A DNA stretch of 64,000 nt. Source: Candidatus Sericytochromatia bacterium. Lineage in GTDB: Bacteria; Cyanobacteriota; Sericytochromatia; S15B-MN24; VGJW01. The stretch spans positions 83,508 through 147,507 of the forward strand of contig JAYKHS010000007.1 in NCBI GenBank assembly GCA_035285865.1, given 5' to 3'. Shown in pieces: positions 19,092 through 25,913 of this stretch. Numbering within the stretch: the first letter of the stretch is position 1; each line of letters begins with the position of its first letter. The notes beneath the pieces were generated by a model. That model ran no database searches. It was not told the DNA's origin and saw only the letters and a program-made list of their open reading frames with translations. The translations under genes and the position numbers were made by a program.

Positions 19092-21176
19092 TCAGGGATA
19101 GCCCTCGGGCACCAACCGCGCCAGATGCCCGCCCACCTGCTCGAGGCGCGCCGAGGCCTCTTCGGCCGAAAGCCCCAGCAACCCCATCGCGGCCGCCAGG
19201 CGGACCTTACCCCCGGCCGCATCCAGCAGGCGTTCCGCTTCGGGCATGCCCTTCATCACGATCTCGTCGATGATGCGGATGGCACGGTCGCGCAATTTGC
19301 GGTTCGAGACGTTCACATCGACCATCAGGTTGCCCCATGTCTTGCCCGTGAGCACCATGATGCCGGTGGATAGGGTCCCCAACACGACCTTGGTCGCCGT
19401 GCCGGCCTTCAGGCGGGTGCTGCCCGTCAGCAATTCGGGGCCCGTGACGATCTCGATCAGGTGGTCGACCGGGGGCTTGCCCTCCGGCCATCGGCCCTCC
19501 TGCGGCACGCACGTGACGAGCGCCGTCAGCGCTCCTTGGGCACGGGCGTGGGCGAGACCGGCACGGACATAGGCAGCCCCCCCTGAAGCCGACAGGCCGA
19601 CCACGATGTCGTCCGGCCCGACGCCTGCTCCCTGCAGATCGGCCACGCCAAGTTCCCCACGGTCCTCGGCCCCTTCGACGGCACGCGTGAGCGCCGACGG
19701 ACCACCGGCCATGAAGCCGAGGACGCGCTCGGGAGCCGTCGAGAACGTCGGCGGACATTCCGCCGCATCCAGCACGCCCAGTCGTCCCGAGGTACCGGCC
19801 CCGAGGTAGATCAGCCGGCCCCCGCGCCCGAACCGCTCGGCCGCATCGGCCAGCAGGCTCGCCAAAGGCGCCCGGGCACTGCGGACGGCAGCCGTGACGC
19901 TGTCTTCCTCGGCCGCGAAGTGCTCGACGATGTCCCCGGCGGAGGCTCTGTCGAGGTAAAGCGTGCCCGGATGACGGCGCTCGGTCGGCGGCAGGTGGGG
20001 ATCCAGCCTCACCCACGGCATCTCGACCAGCAAGCGCTGATAGTTGGCGCCCGGGGCAATCGTCCCGAGGATGGTGGCGCGACGGGCGCCCGTAGCCTCC
20101 GGAGCATGGTTGAGGCGACCGAGGACGGCTTCGTAGGCAAACAACGCAAAGGCCACAGCTTCGCGGGCCGCCGCCTCGGGCAACTTCTCGAGCACGAGGC
20201 CATGCTCGGCGATGAGGGCCTTCAGGCGACGCATCAGCGTCCTGTTGCGCACGCCACCGCCGGCAACCCTGACCCGCGAGGGCCGGAACGACCGATTCGG
20301 GGGCTGCTCCATCCACTGCACCAGCCCCCGGACGACCGTCCGGGCCGTCAGTTCGGTCGCCGTGGCCAGCACGTCCTCGACCGACAGCTCCAGTTGCATG
20401 GCCCGCTCCAGAAGACGCGCGACATAGGGCTGGCCAAACGCTTCGCGTCCCGTCGACTTGGGTGGAAGCTGCCCGAAGTAGGGGTTGTCCAGCAGCGCCC
20501 CGAGCAACACCGGATGCACCTGGCCACGGGCCGCCACCGCTCCGTCCCTGTCGCAAGGCAGGTTCAGCAGTTCCTGAGCCAGGCCGTCGAGGACCATGTT
20601 GGCCGGACCGGTATCGAAGCCCGCGGCCGGCCCCTGCCGCGGAAGCAGCGTGAGGTTCGCGATGCCGCCCAGATTGAGCAGCACCTCGTCGGCCTCTTCC
20701 GAGCCGTACAGGATCTGGTCCGAGTGGGGGACCAGCGGTGCCCCCTGACCGCCCAGCGCCAGATCGGCCACGCGAAAGTCCCCGACGGTCGTCAGCCCGG
20801 TCAAGGCCGCGATTCGCGATGGCGATCCGAGCTGCACCGAGGCCACGCCCGGCAGATGCAGCACGGTCTGGCCGTGGCTGCCCACGAGCTGGATCGTCTC
20901 ATCGGGCGTCTTGCGCCACGGCAAGGGCACATCCGCGACGGCGGTGGCAAAGGCATCGGCCACCTCCACCTCGAGGCGCGCGACCTCCTCGAGGGGCGTA
21001 CCGGGGCCCACTGCCCGGATGCGCGCGCCCAGTCCCTCCGGGTAGCGGACGGTCATGTGACCTTCGACGCGATGCCGGATGCGTCCCCCCGCCGTCCAGA
21101 AGACCACCTGCGCCACGTCGATCCCGTCGGCCGACGTGCCGGACATCAACCCGAGGACCCGCATCCTGTAAGCCAT
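19092..21176 (-). CDS. anmK-murQ: Fused anhydro-N-acetylmuramic acid kinase / N-acetylmuramic acid 6-phosphate etherase
   Basis: AnmK motifs GLMSGTSADGID, GSHGQT, GGQGAPL, FDTGPAN, PKSTGRE; MurQ motifs GAGTSGRLGVLDAAECPPTF, VEGAED, GSTRLKAGTATK; one ORF. Confidence 0.92.
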   Translation of the reverse strand: MAYRMRVLGLMSGTSADGIDVAQVVFWTAGGRIRHRVEGHMTVRYPEGLGARIRAVGPGTPLEEVARLEVEVADAFATAVADVPLPWRKTPDETIQLVGSHGQTVLHLPGVASVQLGSPSRIAALTGLTTVGDFRVADLALGGQGAPLVPHSDQILYGSEEADEVLLNLGGIANLTLLPRQGPAAGFDTGPANMVLDGLAQELLNLPCDRDGAVAARGQVHPVLLGALLDNPYFGQLPPKSTGREAFGQPYVARLLERAMQLELSVEDVLATATELTARTVVRGLVQWMEQPPNRSFRPSRVRVAGGGVRNRTLMRRLKALIAEHGLVLEKLPEAAAREAVAFALFAYEAVLGRLNHAPEATGARRATILGTIAPGANYQRLLVEMPWVRLDPHLPPTERRHPGTLYLDRASAGDIVEHFAAEEDSVTAAVRSARAPLASLLADAAERFGRGGRLIYLGAGTSGRLGVLDAAECPPTFSTAPERVLGFMAGGPSALTRAVEGAEDRGELGVADLQGAGVGPDDIVVGLSASGGAAYVRAGLAHARAQGALTALVTCVPQEGRWPEGKPPVDHLIEIVTGPELLTGSTRLKAGTATKVVLGTLSTGIMVLTGKTWGNLMVDVNVSNRKLRDRAIRIIDEIVMKGMPEAERLLDAAGGKVRLAAAMGLLGLSAEEASARLEQVGGHLARLVPEGYP

Positions 21177-21289
21177 GGCCCTAGCATAACCTTTTCTTAT
21201 CCTCCGCCTGCCGATTTCATGGCAAACTGAAAATGGCTCGCACCTGACCGCATCATCGCCGCCCGTTGCCGGGCCAACCCCTTTTTGCG

Positions 21290-23098
21290 ATGAGCACGCT
21301 GCGTACCTTCGACCTCGAACTGAGGCCCCTCGATCGGGCCCAGCGCGAAGGCCTGCGCCGAATCCGCACTCAGGTCGAGTCCTGGTCGGCCCTCTGGAAC
21401 GAAGCCCTCGCCCCGCTCGGCTGGGTGGATCTGGCCCAGTCCGTTCGGGATGAAGGCCTCGCCCGAGCCCGCACGATGCTCGACAGCGCCCGCGCGGGTG
21501 TCGAAGCCCTGCCCGAGCCTTTCCGCGGCACGCTCCTGGGCGCCCTCAGGACCCAGTACCGGGCGCTCACGGCCGGTGTCGCGGCCACCCGGGGCGAAGC
21601 CTGGACCTGGGCCGTATTCGCACCGGGCACGTGGACGCTCGTGCCTGCCGGGGATGACACCCTGCGCCTGCACCTGCCGCTGCTGGGCCGGGATCTGCCT
21701 GTCCACGCCCGCCTGCCCCAGGGCCTGGACACCGAGACGTTCCGGCGCCAGACGGAGGGTGCCCGCTGGCTCGAGGCGCGCATCGGCCGCAGGCAGGGCC
21801 GCTGGGTGCTGCGCATCCGTTGCCGCCTCGCTGTCCGCACGCCCGTGGGCGTGGATCTCGGCATGCGCCACCGGGCGGTTGTGGCCGATGCCGACGGCCG
21901 ACTCCTGCTCGATGCAACCGGTCGCCGTGAACGCGGCAAGGTTGCCCGGATGGAGCGCGTGATGGCCTCGATGCAGCGCAAGGGCGCCCATCGGGCCGCA
22001 CGACGCCTCGCCGCCCGGCGTGACCGCTATCAGGCCAACTGCGACCTCGCGGTGGCCGGGGCGGTGGTTCGCGCCGCCAGCAAGGTCGCAACGCCGGTCC
22101 TGCATCTCGAGAACGAGGCCACCTTCGCGACCTTGCCCGACGCCATGCGTCGCCGTCTGGTCCGCACCAGCCGGGCCATTCGCCGCAGCGCCAGCCGCGC
22201 CGGCGTGCCCGTCCGCTTGCTGGACGGTCGCCAGTCCACCCATCGCTGCGAAGCGTGCGGGACCCACGTCCCCGCTTCGTCTGCCCCCCTCGTGTCCTGC
22301 CGGTGCGGTTCGCGCCCGCGGGATCTGCAAGCGTCGCGCAACCTTGCGCGTCTCGCGTCGGCACGGGTTCGCCCGTCCGGCGAAGCTCCCCGACCGGATT
22401 CGGGGAGACAGGCCGTCGGCACGGCTGCATCCCCGCCTCCTGCCCGTTACAAGGGCGTGCAGGAGCGCGCGGGAAGGGGCACGCAAGTCCCCCATGCCTG
22501 GATGAACAACATCCCGTCCCTTGGTGCGCCCGCAAGGCGCCAGAAGGAGAAACCCCTCATGACGACCATCGTCAAGGATCTCGGCGAGACCACCCAGAAG
22601 CTCGTCGTCCACTCGCTCGACAACCTCAAGACCTATGTCGAGAAGACCTCCCAGGAACTGGGCGGCGTCAACCTCGTTGGCGCGACCCGGAACGTCCTCG
22701 ACACCGCGATTGACGGCGCCAAGAACGTCGTCAAGGCGGCCGAGACCCTCTCGGACGATCCCTTCACGGCCATCAAGGTCGTGGCCGATCGCTCCGTCGA
22801 GGCCACCCGGGAAGTCCTCAACACCATCGCCGAGGAAGGCCGCAAGGCCGATCTCGTCGGGGTGTCGAGCCGCATCGCGATGGAAGGGCTCAACACCCTT
22901 CGCTCCGAAGTGGATTACGGCCTCGAGACGGGCAAGGCGCTCGTGAACCGGCTTCAGGCCTCGGCCACGCCGACCCAGCCGGTCGTGACGCGTCCGCCTC
23001 AGGTGACCCGTGTCGAGATCGAACACGAGAAGCCCGCGAGGAGCAGCGCCAAGAGCACCGAGAAGGCCGCCGCGGCTGAAAAGCCCGCCAACGCCTGA
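21290..23098 (+). CDS. tnpB: TnpB/Cas12f-like RuvC protein (to ~22360) with no stop of its own, reading in frame into the downstream helical protein
   Basis: IS605 OrfB-like N-terminus; RuvC-I GVDLG (D at 21854), RuvC-II HLENE (E at 22109), Zn finger CEACG...CRCG, RuvC-III RDLQASRNL (D at 22322). Confidence 0.75.
   Translation: MSTLRTFDLELRPLDRAQREGLRRIRTQVESWSALWNEALAPLGWVDLAQSVRDEGLARARTMLDSARAGVEALPEPFRGTLLGALRTQYRALTAGVAATRGEAWTWAVFAPGTWTLVPAGDDTLRLHLPLLGRDLPVHARLPQGLDTETFRRQTEGARWLEARIGRRQGRWVLRIRCRLAVRTPVGVDLGMRHRAVVADADGRLLLDATGRRERGKVARMERVMASMQRKGAHRAARRLAARRDRYQANCDLAVAGAVVRAASKVATPVLHLENEATFATLPDAMRRRLVRTSRAIRRSASRAGVPVRLLDGRQSTHRCEACGTHVPASSAPLVSCRCGSRPRDLQASRNLARLASARVRPSGEAPRPDSGRQAVGTAASPPPARYKGVQERAGRGTQVPHAWMNNIPSLGAPARRQKEKPLMTTIVKDLGETTQKLVVHSLDNLKTYVEKTSQELGGVNLVGATRNVLDTAIDGAKNVVKAAETLSDDPFTAIKVVADRSVEATREVLNTIAEEGRKADLVGVSSRIAMEGLNTLRSEVDYGLETGKALVNRLQASATPTQPVVTRPPQVTRVEIEHEKPARSSAKSTEKAAAAEKPANA
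22360..22545 (+). ncRNA. Candidate structured RNA (omegaRNA-like scaffold or structured leader)
   Basis: Seven hairpins read by eye: 22363-22376 (UUCG loop), 22386-22407, 22411-22426, 22432-22473, 22476-22492 (GCAA loop), 22500-22514, 22526-22540; lies directly after the RuvC-III motif. Confidence 0.5.
22559..23098 (+). CDS. Amphipathic all-helical protein, phasin/apolipoprotein-like, with Lys/Ala-rich tail (179 aa)
   Basis: Own SD AAGGAG before ATG 22559; strongly biased codons; amphipathic periodicity; tail KPARSSAKSTEKAAAAEKPANA. The function label is inference. Confidence 0.7.
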   Translation: MTTIVKDLGETTQKLVVHSLDNLKTYVEKTSQELGGVNLVGATRNVLDTAIDGAKNVVKAAETLSDDPFTAIKVVADRSVEATREVLNTIAEEGRKADLVGVSSRIAMEGLNTLRSEVDYGLETGKALVNRLQASATPTQPVVTRPPQVTRVEIEHEKPARSSAKSTEKAAAAEKPANA

Positions 23099-23111
23099 TC
23101 GACGGCTGCAG

Positions 23112-23153
23112 CCGCCGGGTCCGGACCAGTCCGGGCCCGGCGGTCCGCCTTTT
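23112..23153. terminator. Intrinsic terminator between convergent genes
   Basis: CCGCCGGGTCCGGAC-CA-GTCCGGGCCCGGCGG hairpin followed by a short T run. Confidence 0.65.
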
Positions 23154-23157
23154 GAGG

Positions 23158-23811
23158 TCAGGCGAGGTCGGCGAGCGCCACCCCTGCCGCTACGAGAACC
23201 GCATCCGGATCGGCGGTGCCATCAACCCGAACAATGCGTGCGCCATGTTCACGTGCAAGCACGGCAAAGCCTTCGCGCACCCGCTCGTGGAAAGCCACCC
23301 CGGCACCCTCGAGCCGGTCCGGACCACGCGAGGCGGCGGCGCGGCGCAGACCTTCCGCAACAGGCACATCCAGCCAGAGGGTGCGATCCGGCACGAGCCC
23401 GGCCGTTGCCCACGCATTGACCTGCTCGACCATGGCGCGGTCGAGCCCTCGACCGAAGGCCTGGTAAGCCACCAGCGAATCGACGTGGCGATCGCAGAGC
23501 ACCCACGCACCCCGCGCCAGAGCCGGACGAACCACCTCGGCCAGATGCTGGGCACGGTCTGCGCCATACAGCAACAACTCAGCCAACGGGTCCACATCGT
23601 GCCCCGGTGCCAGCAACAACTGGCGAATCGCACCCCCAAGACCCGTTCCTCCGGGCTCGCGGGTGACGACGACCTCCCTGCCCTCGCTGCCCAGCATCTC
23701 GGCAAGCGCGCGGATGAGCGTCGTCTTGCCCGCGCCCTCCCCGCCCTCGAAGGTCACGAAACGGCCCTTGCCGCTCCGAGGCAACGGGGATAGCCGGTCC
23801 ACGCCGCTCAA
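23158..23811 (-). CDS. tmk: Thymidylate kinase
   Basis: FVTFEGGEGAGKTT, TREPGGT, ADRAQH, LCDR..DS..AYQ. Confidence 0.95.
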   Translation of the reverse strand: MSGVDRLSPLPRSGKGRFVTFEGGEGAGKTTLIRALAEMLGSEGREVVVTREPGGTGLGGAIRQLLLAPGHDVDPLAELLLYGADRAQHLAEVVRPALARGAWVLCDRHVDSLVAYQAFGRGLDRAMVEQVNAWATAGLVPDRTLWLDVPVAEGLRRAAASRGPDRLEGAGVAFHERVREGFAVLAREHGARIVRVDGTADPDAVLVAAGVALADLA

Positions 23812-25913
23812 GGGACCGCTCCCGGAAGACGTGGGCGCAAGGGCGCTTCAGACGGCGACCAGACGGGCATCGGCAGCACCTGGGGCGACGACGACGCAGG
23901 CGACGACGCAGGCGACGACGCAGGCGACGACGCAGGCGACGACGCAGGCGACGGCGCTTCCGTGGCCCCTTCCGAAACACTGCTTTCCCGCGCGCCTGGC
24001 AACACGACGGGTTCCGCATCCTGGAAGGGATCCCAGGTGGGACCAGGTGACGGCAGACCCGGTGGGGGGCTGGCCTCGGGGAAGTTCCGCACGGGCAGGC
24101 CGGAGTGCCAGTCCTTCATGACCTTGCGCCAGATGCGGGCGGCCACCCTCCCCCCGAAGGCCCCGTCCTTCATCGGTGCGCGATCGTCGTTGCCGACCCA
24201 CACGGCCAGGCTGACCTGCGGCGTGAATCCTGCGAACCAGGCATCGCGGAACGCACTGGTCGTCCCCGTCTTGCCCGCGGCCGGCCGACCGATGCCCTGG
24301 CCCTTGGCCGTGCCGCGCTCGAGGACGCCGGAGAGCACCGAGACCAGGCGGGAAACGGCATGGGGCGGGGCTACCTCGGCCCGACGGGGTGCCGGACGCT
24401 CGTCGAGGCCGCCGCCCACGACCCGCACATGCAGCTGTGGCTGGACCCACTGGCCCTTGTTGGCGAACGCCGCGTAGGCGGCCGCGAGCTCGATGGGGTT
24501 GGTGGCTCCCGAGCCCAGTGCAAGCGTCAGGTCCCGGGGATGCGGTCCCCGCATGCCGGCCGCCTTGAGGATGGCCTCGACCGGCTGGCGCCCTACCTCG
24601 GCATAGGTCCGGACCGCCACCGTGTTGACCGACTGCTCCAACGCGGCGCGAAGCGTCAGCGCACCATAGATGCGCCCGTCGTCGTTGCGCGGCTGGTACC
24701 AGCGCCCGTTGCCGGCCGGGTAGCGCGCCGCCGCGTCCACCACCACGTCCTCCGGCGTCCGGCCGGAGGCGAAGGCCGCAAGGTAGACGAACGGCTTCAT
24801 GCAACTGCCCGGCTGCAGGTTCGCCATCGTCCGGTCGTAGTCCGTCGCCCCGACGCCACCCACAAGGGCCAGCACGTGGCCCGTGCCGGGTTCGACGGCC
24901 GCCATGGCCACCTGTCTGAAGCCCATCCGGGCACCATCCGTCCGCACGGCCTCCTCGGCCGCGGCCACCGCCAACTCCTGCAACCGGGCATCCAGCGTCG
25001 TCTGGACCACAAGCCCGCCCTCCTGCACGCGCGCCGGCCCGAGACGCGCCTCGAGCACGCTCTGCAGGCGACGGCGGAACCAGCCGTGGTCATCCCGGGG
25101 CGAACGCTTGATGCCAAGGTGCCGACGCAGACCGTGTCCATCGATCTCTCCGGCACGCCAACGGGCCACCTGTCGGGTGCGTGCCTCGCGAACCAAACGA
25201 TCCGCCTTGAGATGACCGGCATTCACCATGCGGCCAAGCACGAAACGCTGGCGATCGATGAGTCGGTCGAGTCCATCGTCCGAGAAGGGATCGTATTGTG
25301 ACGGTCCCTTGAGCATGGCGACAAGCACGGCCCCTTGGCCGGGATCCAGTCGGCTCGCCGGCTTGCCGAAGTAGACCTCCGCCGCTGCGGCAACGCCGTA
25401 CGCACCCCGCCCCCACCAGACCTCGTTCAAGTAGCGTTCCAGAATCTGGTCCTTGGTCATGCCACGCGTGAGCTGGACCGTGACCATGGCCTCGCGCAAC
25501 TTGCGGTCCAGGGTCTTGCGTCGGTCCTGGATCAGCGTCTTGGCCAACTGTTGCGTCAGCGTCGACCCGCCCTCCCGAGCCTCTCCCGCGAGCAGGTTCT
25601 TGAACATCGCCCTTGCGAGGCCCTTGGGATCGAAACCGACATTGCCGTAGAAGCCGGGATCCTCGGTATCGATCAAGGCCTGCCGCAGGGACTCCGGCAC
25701 GTCGGCCAGAGCCACGGCGTGCTGATGGCGTTCGCCCCGGATCTCCCCGAAGACCCGACCGGCCCGATCCCGAAGGATTGAGGGGGGACCGGGAAAAGGA
25801 CGCAGCAAATCGGCCAAGGTATCGGCCGCGAGGCCCGGGCGGGCCAGGACCAGCATGGCCATCGTGGCGACCACCCCGGTCAGAGCCGAACGGCTCCGTC
25901 CGAAGGACCCCAC
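23808..25913 (-). CDS. Class A penicillin-binding protein (PBP1A family)
   Basis: Transglycosylase TED..FY, GGSTLTQQLAK, RKLRE; transpeptidase SCMK, SVN, KTG; start uncertain (25913 GTG or 25862 ATG). Confidence 0.9.
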   Translation of the reverse strand: MGSFGRSRSALTGVVATMAMLVLARPGLAADTLADLLRPFPGPPSILRDRAGRVFGEIRGERHQHAVALADVPESLRQALIDTEDPGFYGNVGFDPKGLARAMFKNLLAGEAREGGSTLTQQLAKTLIQDRRKTLDRKLREAMVTVQLTRGMTKDQILERYLNEVWWGRGAYGVAAAAEVYFGKPASRLDPGQGAVLVAMLKGPSQYDPFSDDGLDRLIDRQRFVLGRMVNAGHLKADRLVREARTRQVARWRAGEIDGHGLRRHLGIKRSPRDDHGWFRRRLQSVLEARLGPARVQEGGLVVQTTLDARLQELAVAAAEEAVRTDGARMGFRQVAMAAVEPGTGHVLALVGGVGATDYDRTMANLQPGSCMKPFVYLAAFASGRTPEDVVVDAAARYPAGNGRWYQPRNDDGRIYGALTLRAALEQSVNTVAVRTYAEVGRQPVEAILKAAGMRGPHPRDLTLALGSGATNPIELAAAYAAFANKGQWVQPQLHVRVVGGGLDERPAPRRAEVAPPHAVSRLVSVLSGVLERGTAKGQGIGRPAAGKTGTTSAFRDAWFAGFTPQVSLAVWVGNDDRAPMKDGAFGGRVAARIWRKVMKDWHSGLPVRNFPEASPPPGLPSPGPTWDPFQDAEPVVLPGARESSVSEGATEAPSPASSPASSPASSPASSPASSSPQVLPMPVWSPSEAPLRPRLPGAVP
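23890..23949. repeat. 12-bp tandem repeat (GACGACGCAGGC x5) encoding (PASS)n in the PBP tail
   Basis: Five perfect copies, frame-preserving. Confidence 0.95.

Follow-up and report, generated by a model that had tools for sequence, protein, structure and literature searches.

What does a gene for a TnpB-like protein do for its host when it has no stop codon and reads on, in frame, into the gene of a small amphipathic protein? The question is raised by a locus in a 64,000-nucleotide stretch of a Candidatus Sericytochromatia contig (the window), carried by genome G000, which is 83% complete. A preliminary description of the window offered two ideas for the fusion: a DNA binder tethered to granules or membranes, or a regulator of the partner protein. 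Regulation of the partner is the better supported of the two; the tethered DNA binder fares worse, with no target found and REC helices lost in some genomes.

The Fused Locus and Its Neighbors

The locus is a single 602-aa open frame, stop-free throughout, with a second start at 22559. Both the uninterrupted frame into a 179-aa protein and the separate SD and ATG of that protein had been described before and were confirmed. Its main features are as follows.

19092-21176, minus strand: anmK-murQ fusion, the divergent neighbor; taken as a synteny marker only
21290-23098, plus strand: long isoform, 602 aa, with a TnpB/Cas12f-like domain, an omega-RNA-encoded linker, and an amphipathic domain; weak SD
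22544-22549, plus strand: SD of the short open reading frame (ORF), AAGGAG; strong and conserved in 18/18
22559-23098, plus strand: short isoform, 179 aa, with four amphipathic helices and a TRVEIE tail
23111-23153, plus strand: probable terminator, a 15-bp hairpin followed by TTTT; the terminator scan made no call

The neighboring genes are anmK-murQ, which is divergent, and tmk, as previously noted. AnmK is the divergent neighbor in all 11 loci scanned from families f1 and f3. The anmK and murQ-like (SIS) genes are themselves joined in one ORF of about 690 aa, and the same arrangement occurs in f1 and f3 relatives. The terminator proposed for both ORFs holds in part: the 15-bp hairpin is present at 23111-23144, but just four T follow the stem.

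The tnpB-like gene is present in one copy in G000. A Y1 tnpA was not found in G000-G003 (G000 being 83% complete), nor was a CRISPR-like array at 14-30 kb of the window, in agreement with the preliminary description. Elsewhere in the window, a 12-bp tandem repeat at 23877-23969 (seven overlapping matches) encodes the Ser/Pro/Ala tail of a penicillin-binding protein on the minus strand.

The TnpB/Cas12f-Like Domain

Residues 1-355 of the long ORF are TnpB/Cas12f-like by HMM, by profile search of PDB sequences, and by fold. Matches to NCBIfam guided_TnpB (E=1.4e-9) and Pfam Cas12f1-like_TNB (E=3.5e-5) lie below the respective cut-offs yet are consistent in family. Cas12f entries are the best hits in the PDB profile search (E 7e-26), and Foldseek with an AF2 model of this part places AsCas12f and OsCas12f at the top (E about 1e-10), with TnpB next. 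The domain has the WED-REC-RuvC-TNB fold with a split RuvC that characterizes the TnpB/Cas12f superfamily. The three RuvC acidic residues and zinc finger of the preliminary description were verified as D189 in GVDLG, E274 in HLENE, D345 in RDLQASRN, and a four-Cys finger spanning C320-C339.

21290-21840, plus strand: WED/REC part; REC helices deleted in G006, G013, G023, and G026, and the whole part absent in G008
21848-22350, plus strand: RuvC and four-Cys finger, with D189 (21854), E274 (22109), finger (22247-22306), and D345 (22322)

The D-E-D triad and the four cysteines are kept in 23/25 sequences, the only exceptions to D-E-D retention being G002 and G008. These two genomes have lost catalytic residues (a dead or truncated RuvC) and still keep the RNA and the reading frame, so RuvC cutting is not universal.

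REC is deleted in four of the 18 fused genomes, which represent two lineages (G006 and genus g8), and G008 is without WED and REC. The TnpB part of the REC-deleted genus g8 has a dN/dS of 0.17 and is still under selection. In ISDra2 TnpB, the scaffold follows WED and RuvC, and recognition of the TAM takes place where WED meets REC (PMC13639567). All four REC-deleted genomes, again two lineages, are without a PhaC hit (G006 is 64% complete, G013 99%). This coincidence can be read in two ways: REC may be dispensable, or it may be needed where the system fully works, and the latter keeps a DNA-binding role for the long isoform alive.

Conservation of the Fusion

The TnpB part is in frame with the helical protein in 18 of the 19 genomes of families f1, f2, and f3; in the odd one, G007, the locus is broken by a contig end. 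Family f4 has the helical protein alone, with no TnpB part, in 8/8 genomes. Beyond GTDB, the TnpB part is present in 12/12 long proteins that bear the helical domain, and five of six metagenome loci keep the frame, among them a match to the G004 protein and a locus truncated at its 5′ end. The earlier suggestion of a layout for a long plus a short protein is supported at the level of sequence. Two loci depart from the pattern. A 1,631-bp contig (L091) carries the omega-RNA and the short ORF with an upstream region that is not tnpB and a broken first hairpin, which makes it either a chimera or a true loss. The f4 genome G022 carries an ordinary IS605 tnpB with an HTH (L077:6582-7706), two genes upstream of the stand-alone helical gene; its architecture places it outside the fused clade.

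In-frame stops are found in 0/21 linkers, compared with 16/21 in each other frame, over eight linker lengths; the 21 linkers include kin and hence are not independent. A single linker would be stop-free by chance with P 0.17-0.53. The TnpB part has dN/dS of 0.12-0.37 in 10/10 pairs. Linker dS is lower than TnpB dS in 10/10 pairs, linker dN/dS reaches 1.4, and third codon positions of the linker are invariant in parts. In a quick tree that left out G008, the fused TnpBs group together, separate from 44 stand-alone relatives (SH-aLRT 100), and a single clade also unites the fused helical domains (98; 24 rows). Close homologs carry the label Ca. Sericytochromatia.

A further reading is an IS1341-like element, ordinary or in decay, that reads through by chance; for G000 taken alone a stop-free linker is plausible (P=0.53). 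Across orthologs, chance read-through is ruled out by the absence of in-frame stops at all eight lengths and by the 18/19 fused genomes, and the preliminary description's reservation on this point no longer holds: the read-through is real and selected. The element itself is refuted as mobile or ordinary, with next to no probability left, by one omega-RNA copy per genome in 18/19 f1-f3 genomes, the single fused clade, purifying selection, the frame kept in 21/21, and anmK synteny. An ordinary element would show near-identical copies at unrelated sites, whereas here there is one copy per genome, and no Y1 tnpA was found in G000-G003. Single copy, vertical inheritance, and purifying selection thus point to a real, lineage-wide domestication, as the preliminary description had proposed.

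The Linker as an Omega-RNA

By its structure and its ends, the linker is identified as the omega-RNA of the transposon. The preliminary description missed it and reported no obvious IS ends; an IS200/IS605 right end and an omega-RNA sit within the linker. The predicted elements are listed below.

22386-22407, plus strand: hairpin H0 of the omega-RNA; compensatory changes at 8/8 pairs
22411-22426, plus strand: hairpin H1, an invariant stem; possible pairing of loop 22418-22421 with the right-end motif (pseudoknot 1)
22431-22473, plus strand: inner stems with covariation; the loop motif at 22450-22455 and the anchor form pseudoknot 2
22473-22500, plus strand: remnant IS200/IS605 right end, with GAAG, a subterminal hairpin, and the end motif at 22493-22500
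22501-22517, plus strand: guide slot, 17 nt; length fixed in 17/18 aligned orthologs, with an anti-SD hexamer in family f3
22518-22523, plus strand: anchor, which pairs with 22450-22455 of the scaffold and has a compensatory change in G005; in f1 the SD is an alternative partner

The structure contains 34 pairs, with 94% of cells paired and 19/34 pairs compensatory, compared with 32-44% in slid controls; it was derived from the same 18 sequences on which it was scored. As in TnpB and Cas12f systems, a cognate structured omega-RNA lies 3′ of the protein domain and ends at a transposon right end.

The nearest mobile relatives are 52 loci (L093-L144), mostly from Bacillota and multi-copy. They occur as near-identical copies with differing flanks, and their right end consists of GAAG or GAAT, a hairpin, and an ATGTCA(C/A) motif. 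Because the copies differ in their flanks, the right end is fixed, and the guide slot is therefore placed at 22501-22517. The mobile relatives share this right end and two upstream hairpins with the linker, as motifs read by eye, and G017 retains the exact mobile end motif. Model R1 finds one omega-RNA per genome in 18/19 f1-f3 genomes and 0/8 in f4. R1 gave no score to the mobile omega-RNAs and no Rfam family matches the linker omega-RNA, so its homology to the mobile kin rests on the eye-read motifs. The loci L094-L106 have a TATAAT-like word 3′ of the tnpB stop, in the loop of the first omega-RNA hairpin, a possible internal promoter for the omega-RNA.

The Guide Slot and DNA Targets

The guide slot has the length of a TnpB guide and a fixed size, which would suit DNA binding guided by RNA. 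A search of 15 genomes gave no conserved DNA target, with pattern matches staying at control level; genome-wide it covers seeds of about 12 nt and longer. Guide seeds are about as frequent as in shuffles at 14 pha loci and at 18 own loci. G000 has nine sites with at least 14/17 guide matches, compared with three for shuffles, and a T-rich flank at none of them. The guide slot of G011 is matched at 17/17 positions by one other site of that genome (L209, G011:C32:51860-51876), with TTT before it. The site falls within a long coding sequence, and the ortholog in G009 differs from the G009 guide at four positions, so the site was rejected as a target. A 14-nt match in G019 was also rejected; it lies in a coding region and is absent from G021 and G025. 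The slot is tied to the scaffold by the anchor and pairs with itself in genus g1.

These results bear on the rival view that the long isoform is an RNA-guided DNA binder, resembling TldR or dCas12f or tethering the granule to the chromosome as PhaF does, with a short seed or a guide from elsewhere and the short RNA as a by-product of maturation. PhaF ties granules to the nucleoid according to the portion of PMC9049629 consulted, and WED plus a variable-length REC are kept in fused genomes with a full PhaC hit while REC is lost where PhaC was not found; the guide length and the G011 match can be counted on the same side. Weighing more heavily are control-level matches, a G011 site that its ortholog does not preserve, and a slot occupied by the scaffold or by itself. 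An intact D-E-D triad with a chromosomal target would moreover risk self-cutting. The DNA binder suggested in the preliminary description, which also has to accommodate REC deletion in 4/18 fused genomes, is consequently regarded as unlikely.

Start of the Short ORF and RNA Evidence

The ATG at 22559 has an SD duplex of -8.1 kcal/mol, compared with -1.5 kcal/mol for the first ATG. In 18/19 MFE folds, the partner of the short-ORF SD is the guide slot in f3 and the anchor in f1 and f2, and the f3 anti-SD is built from two proline codons seldom used in these genes (29 and 4 of 305). SD opening energy beats composition-matched shuffles in 1/12 and is equaled by them in 11/12, and in G000 it lies at the 23rd percentile of that genome's genes. 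With neither the shuffle nor the gene control significant, a riboswitch-like SD switch was set aside and survives as a possibility only.

RNA runs that contain part of the locus number 11, from eight studies, and four of these runs were examined, the remaining seven having small shares.

22362-23070, plus strand: stretch covered by RNA contigs from four studies, a candidate processed omega-RNA-led mRNA; the contigs carry no strand

Contigs start at 22380, 22362, 22364, and 22372 in the four runs, which is 6-24 nt upstream of H0 and 121-139 nt before the right end, and in two runs they extend to 23065-23070. Two of the starts bear adapter-like loose ends. The region 20900-22360, including the tnpB coding part, is without contig cover in these four runs; at 4/11 runs, this is not proof of silence. 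The contigs, which hold no strand, level, or true ends, give a weak hint of a short omega-RNA-led transcript. AmaTnpB RuvC trims its own mRNA 5′, not 3′, of the omega-RNA, and the 3′ sequence stays attached, according to the accessible text of PMC10278001. Trimming of this type would give RNA like the contigs seen here, and as weak evidence the contig starts fit RuvC-type 5′ processing. A promoter scan over 21000-23300 returned none at all, not even for the long ORF.

Proposed Mechanism

The proposed mechanism builds on four features established at the level of sequence: the in-frame fusion, the two starts, the omega-RNA fold, and purifying selection. An IS200/IS605 tnpB element would have inserted once, just 5′ of a host amphipathic-protein gene, in the ancestor of the three families; the inserted tnpB would then have lost its stop codon and been retained by the host. 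The locus would yield a weakly translated long protein consisting of TnpB, linker, and helical domain. Its TnpB part would bind the omega-RNA in its own mRNA, and the RuvC, like that of free TnpB, would cut just 5′ of the omega-RNA. The cut would end long-form synthesis from that mRNA molecule, a negative feedback, and leave a stable omega-RNA-led message of about 720 nt for abundant short protein. The guide slot would no longer be aimed at DNA; it would be tied to the scaffold and adjoin the short-ORF SD. The shared helical domain may bring the long form to the same surface as the short form and couple output to it. The view that the long isoform, itself scarce, acts on its own mRNA by binding and cutting it, and so frees an omega-RNA-led message for the short isoform, is given slightly better than even chances.

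The omega-RNA fold may instead be only a stabilizing 5′ leader, produced through an internal promoter or host RNases, with the TnpB part protecting the RNA uncut and no feedback through the helical protein. Retention of the RNA in G002 and G008 beside a dead or truncated RuvC speaks for this account, as does the TATAAT-like word in the H0-homolog loop of the mobile relatives. A promoter scan that is silent even for the long ORF leaves room for an internal promoter, which counts against the cutting model. The RNA contigs start upstream of H0 and not past its loop, however, D-E-D is kept in 23/25 sequences, and a passive leader leaves the frame into the helical domain over eight linker lengths without explanation. 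It is accordingly judged improbable, slightly more so than the DNA binder.

The Amphipathic Domain and PHA

The 179-aa domain is found in 27/27 genomes of the order and 0/20 other genomes of the class. A phylum search at E<=1e-6 detects it in 26/301 genomes, all 26 from the order, with no detection in the 274 phylum genomes outside it. The helical protein is strongly amphipathic (hydrophobic moment z=3.0-5.6), and its AF2 model has a pLDDT of 48. The domain has no Foldseek match at E<=0.001, no phasin HMM match, and no meaningful PDB or NCBIfam match. The named Atlas neighbors of the protein belong mostly to PHA-granule families, with scores of 0.80-0.89, and serve as leads only; among those shown, 4/5 Pfam families are PHA-granule, all below 0.9. 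Sequence and fold matches to the phasin families PF09361, PF05597, and PF09602 are lacking, while the protein is, as expected of a phasin, small, amphipathic, and all-helical in a PHA producer (PhaC is present in G000). The label "phasin-like" is therefore only a lead, drawn from the amphipathic character and the nearest named clusters and from no HMM, PDB, or fold match; a PHA-granule role is suggested.

A PhaC hit is present in 20/27 genomes of the order, and the helical gene persists in the seven without one. PhaR is found in 0/27 genomes of the order compared with 19/20 in sister orders; its absence is one evolutionary event and includes f4, which is without the fusion. The longest end branches of the helical domain belong to G014, G010, and G013, all without a PhaC hit, and the domain is accelerated in G013. 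The helical-protein gene is not linked to pha genes. The pha operon (G000:C30 about 21300-23200, L263; also L264 and L269) consists of a PhaE-like ORF, a helical ORF of about 95 aa, and a class III-type PhaC. The 95-aa ORF has a weak PhaP_Bmeg match in G015 and is a candidate phasin of the order; it shows no profile match to the helical domain and is unrelated. PhaR of the sister orders (L265:5712-6320, L267:5984-6562) has a C-terminal part with a weak match to Pseudomonas-type phasin (PF05597).

The sensed surface is proposed to be the PHA granule, in a lineage without PhaR. This is the least certain step, with a chance somewhat short of even. The same RNA mechanism could operate with the helical protein on membranes or another lipid inclusion, a reading that is possible though doubtful. 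It would account for the missing phasin HMM and fold matches, for a gene unlinked to pha and present in seven genomes without a PhaC hit, and for a pha operon with its own small candidate. It sits less well with the PHA-granule families, which are four of the five Pfam families shown among the named Atlas neighbors (all below 0.9), and with the fact that the longest helical-domain branches occur where PhaC was not found.

Taken to its full extent, the granule reading would make the locus a transposon RNP that replaces PhaR as a post-transcriptional, granule-sensing autoregulator, in which a TnpB-phasin recognizes the omega-RNA of its own mRNA, cuts and caps it, and so frees the phasin message, while its phasin domain links this output to the PHA granule surface. 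This composite proposal is tentative and rather unlikely to hold in all its parts. Within it, and with the same reserve, one sequence would serve as omega-RNA scaffold, mRNA leader, and protein linker.

Relation to Known Systems

IS200/IS605 TnpBs (AmaTnpB, ISDra2, and the Bacillota kin L093-L144) share with the fused locus the RuvC D-E-D triad, the Cys4 finger, and an omega-RNA 3′ of RuvC-III with a right-end hairpin and end motif. In contrast to them, the fused locus is immobile, single-copy, and stop-free; its omega-RNA is translated as a linker with a host ORF next, its guide slot is tied by a conserved anchor, and REC is dispensable in some lineages.

TldRs (fliC-, oppF-, and csrA-associated) are also domesticated TnpBs with a retained RNA and a stable partner gene, and are defined by at least two D-E-D mutations and guides matching promoters, as far as the consulted part of 10.1101/2023.11.30.569447 goes. 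The analogy drawn in the preliminary description fails at this point because D-E-D is intact in 23/25 sequences; further, a conserved, TAM-flanked promoter site for the guide was not found, and here TnpB and partner are one fused protein (10.1101/2023.11.30.569447; 10.64898/2026.09.22.753285). dCas12f-sigmaE is likewise a Cas12f-like fold exapted for gene control (PMC13472631, in the portion seen). The fused locus differs in having no array at 14-30 kb, no linked sigmaE, no sigma factor among 82 neighbor proteins scanned, kept catalytic residues, no DNA target, and a covalently fused partner. Intact D-E-D in 23/25, REC deletions, and the lack of a conserved target in 15 genomes therefore set the locus apart from TldR, dCas12f, and IS elements.

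GATase-TnpB and other immobile active TnpBs (Altae-Tran 2023) resemble the locus in being immobile with an active-looking RuvC, and GATase-TnpB is reduced to wedge plus RuvC (PMC10691335, in the sections consulted). Those proteins are from archaea or other lineages, unfused, and uncertain in RNA binding, whereas the RNA of the present locus is conserved and covaries. In the part of the PMC10691335 exaptation list that was covered, no comparable fusion was noticed.

The granule-sensing circuits PhaR/PhaP, PhaF/PhaI, and PhaQ/PhaP also combine a nucleic-acid-binding domain with a granule-type helical domain and a scarce regulator with an abundant short partner. The phaQP transcript is thought to be differentially degraded, as stated in the accessible part of PMC9049629. 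Those circuits act on DNA and no homology to them was detected, while granule binding here is putative. By analogy, the fused locus would combine self-processing by a TnpB with a logic of the PhaR/PhaQ type (PMC9049629).

TnpB exaptations in the literature searched, as far as the sources were available, either locate DNA through an RNA guide or have no known function. A counterpart to this architecture was not found in that literature, which left most subscription papers outside its scope: the mostly non-subscription papers covered hold no description of such a TnpB in Sericytochromatia, with a phasin, as a fusion, in translation control, or with an internal start. Control of a partner mRNA rather than cutting of DNA is likewise a use without description there. 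If true, the RNA-binding and RNA-cutting half of TnpB was kept and the DNA-reading half let go, and an omega-RNA became a host-mRNA leader. By a new route, a selfish element would have turned into a host regulator, and the result would be a compact module for RNA processing and stabilization. It would also be a candidate for granule-protein control in an order that makes PHA without PhaR.

Further Observations

Two of the loci compared contain SpoIIIAA/R3H-type ATPase genes of about 650-690 aa (L068:9052-10995 and L071:7734-9797). The G015 copy of this gene has LAGLIDADG matches, which suggests an intein or homing element.
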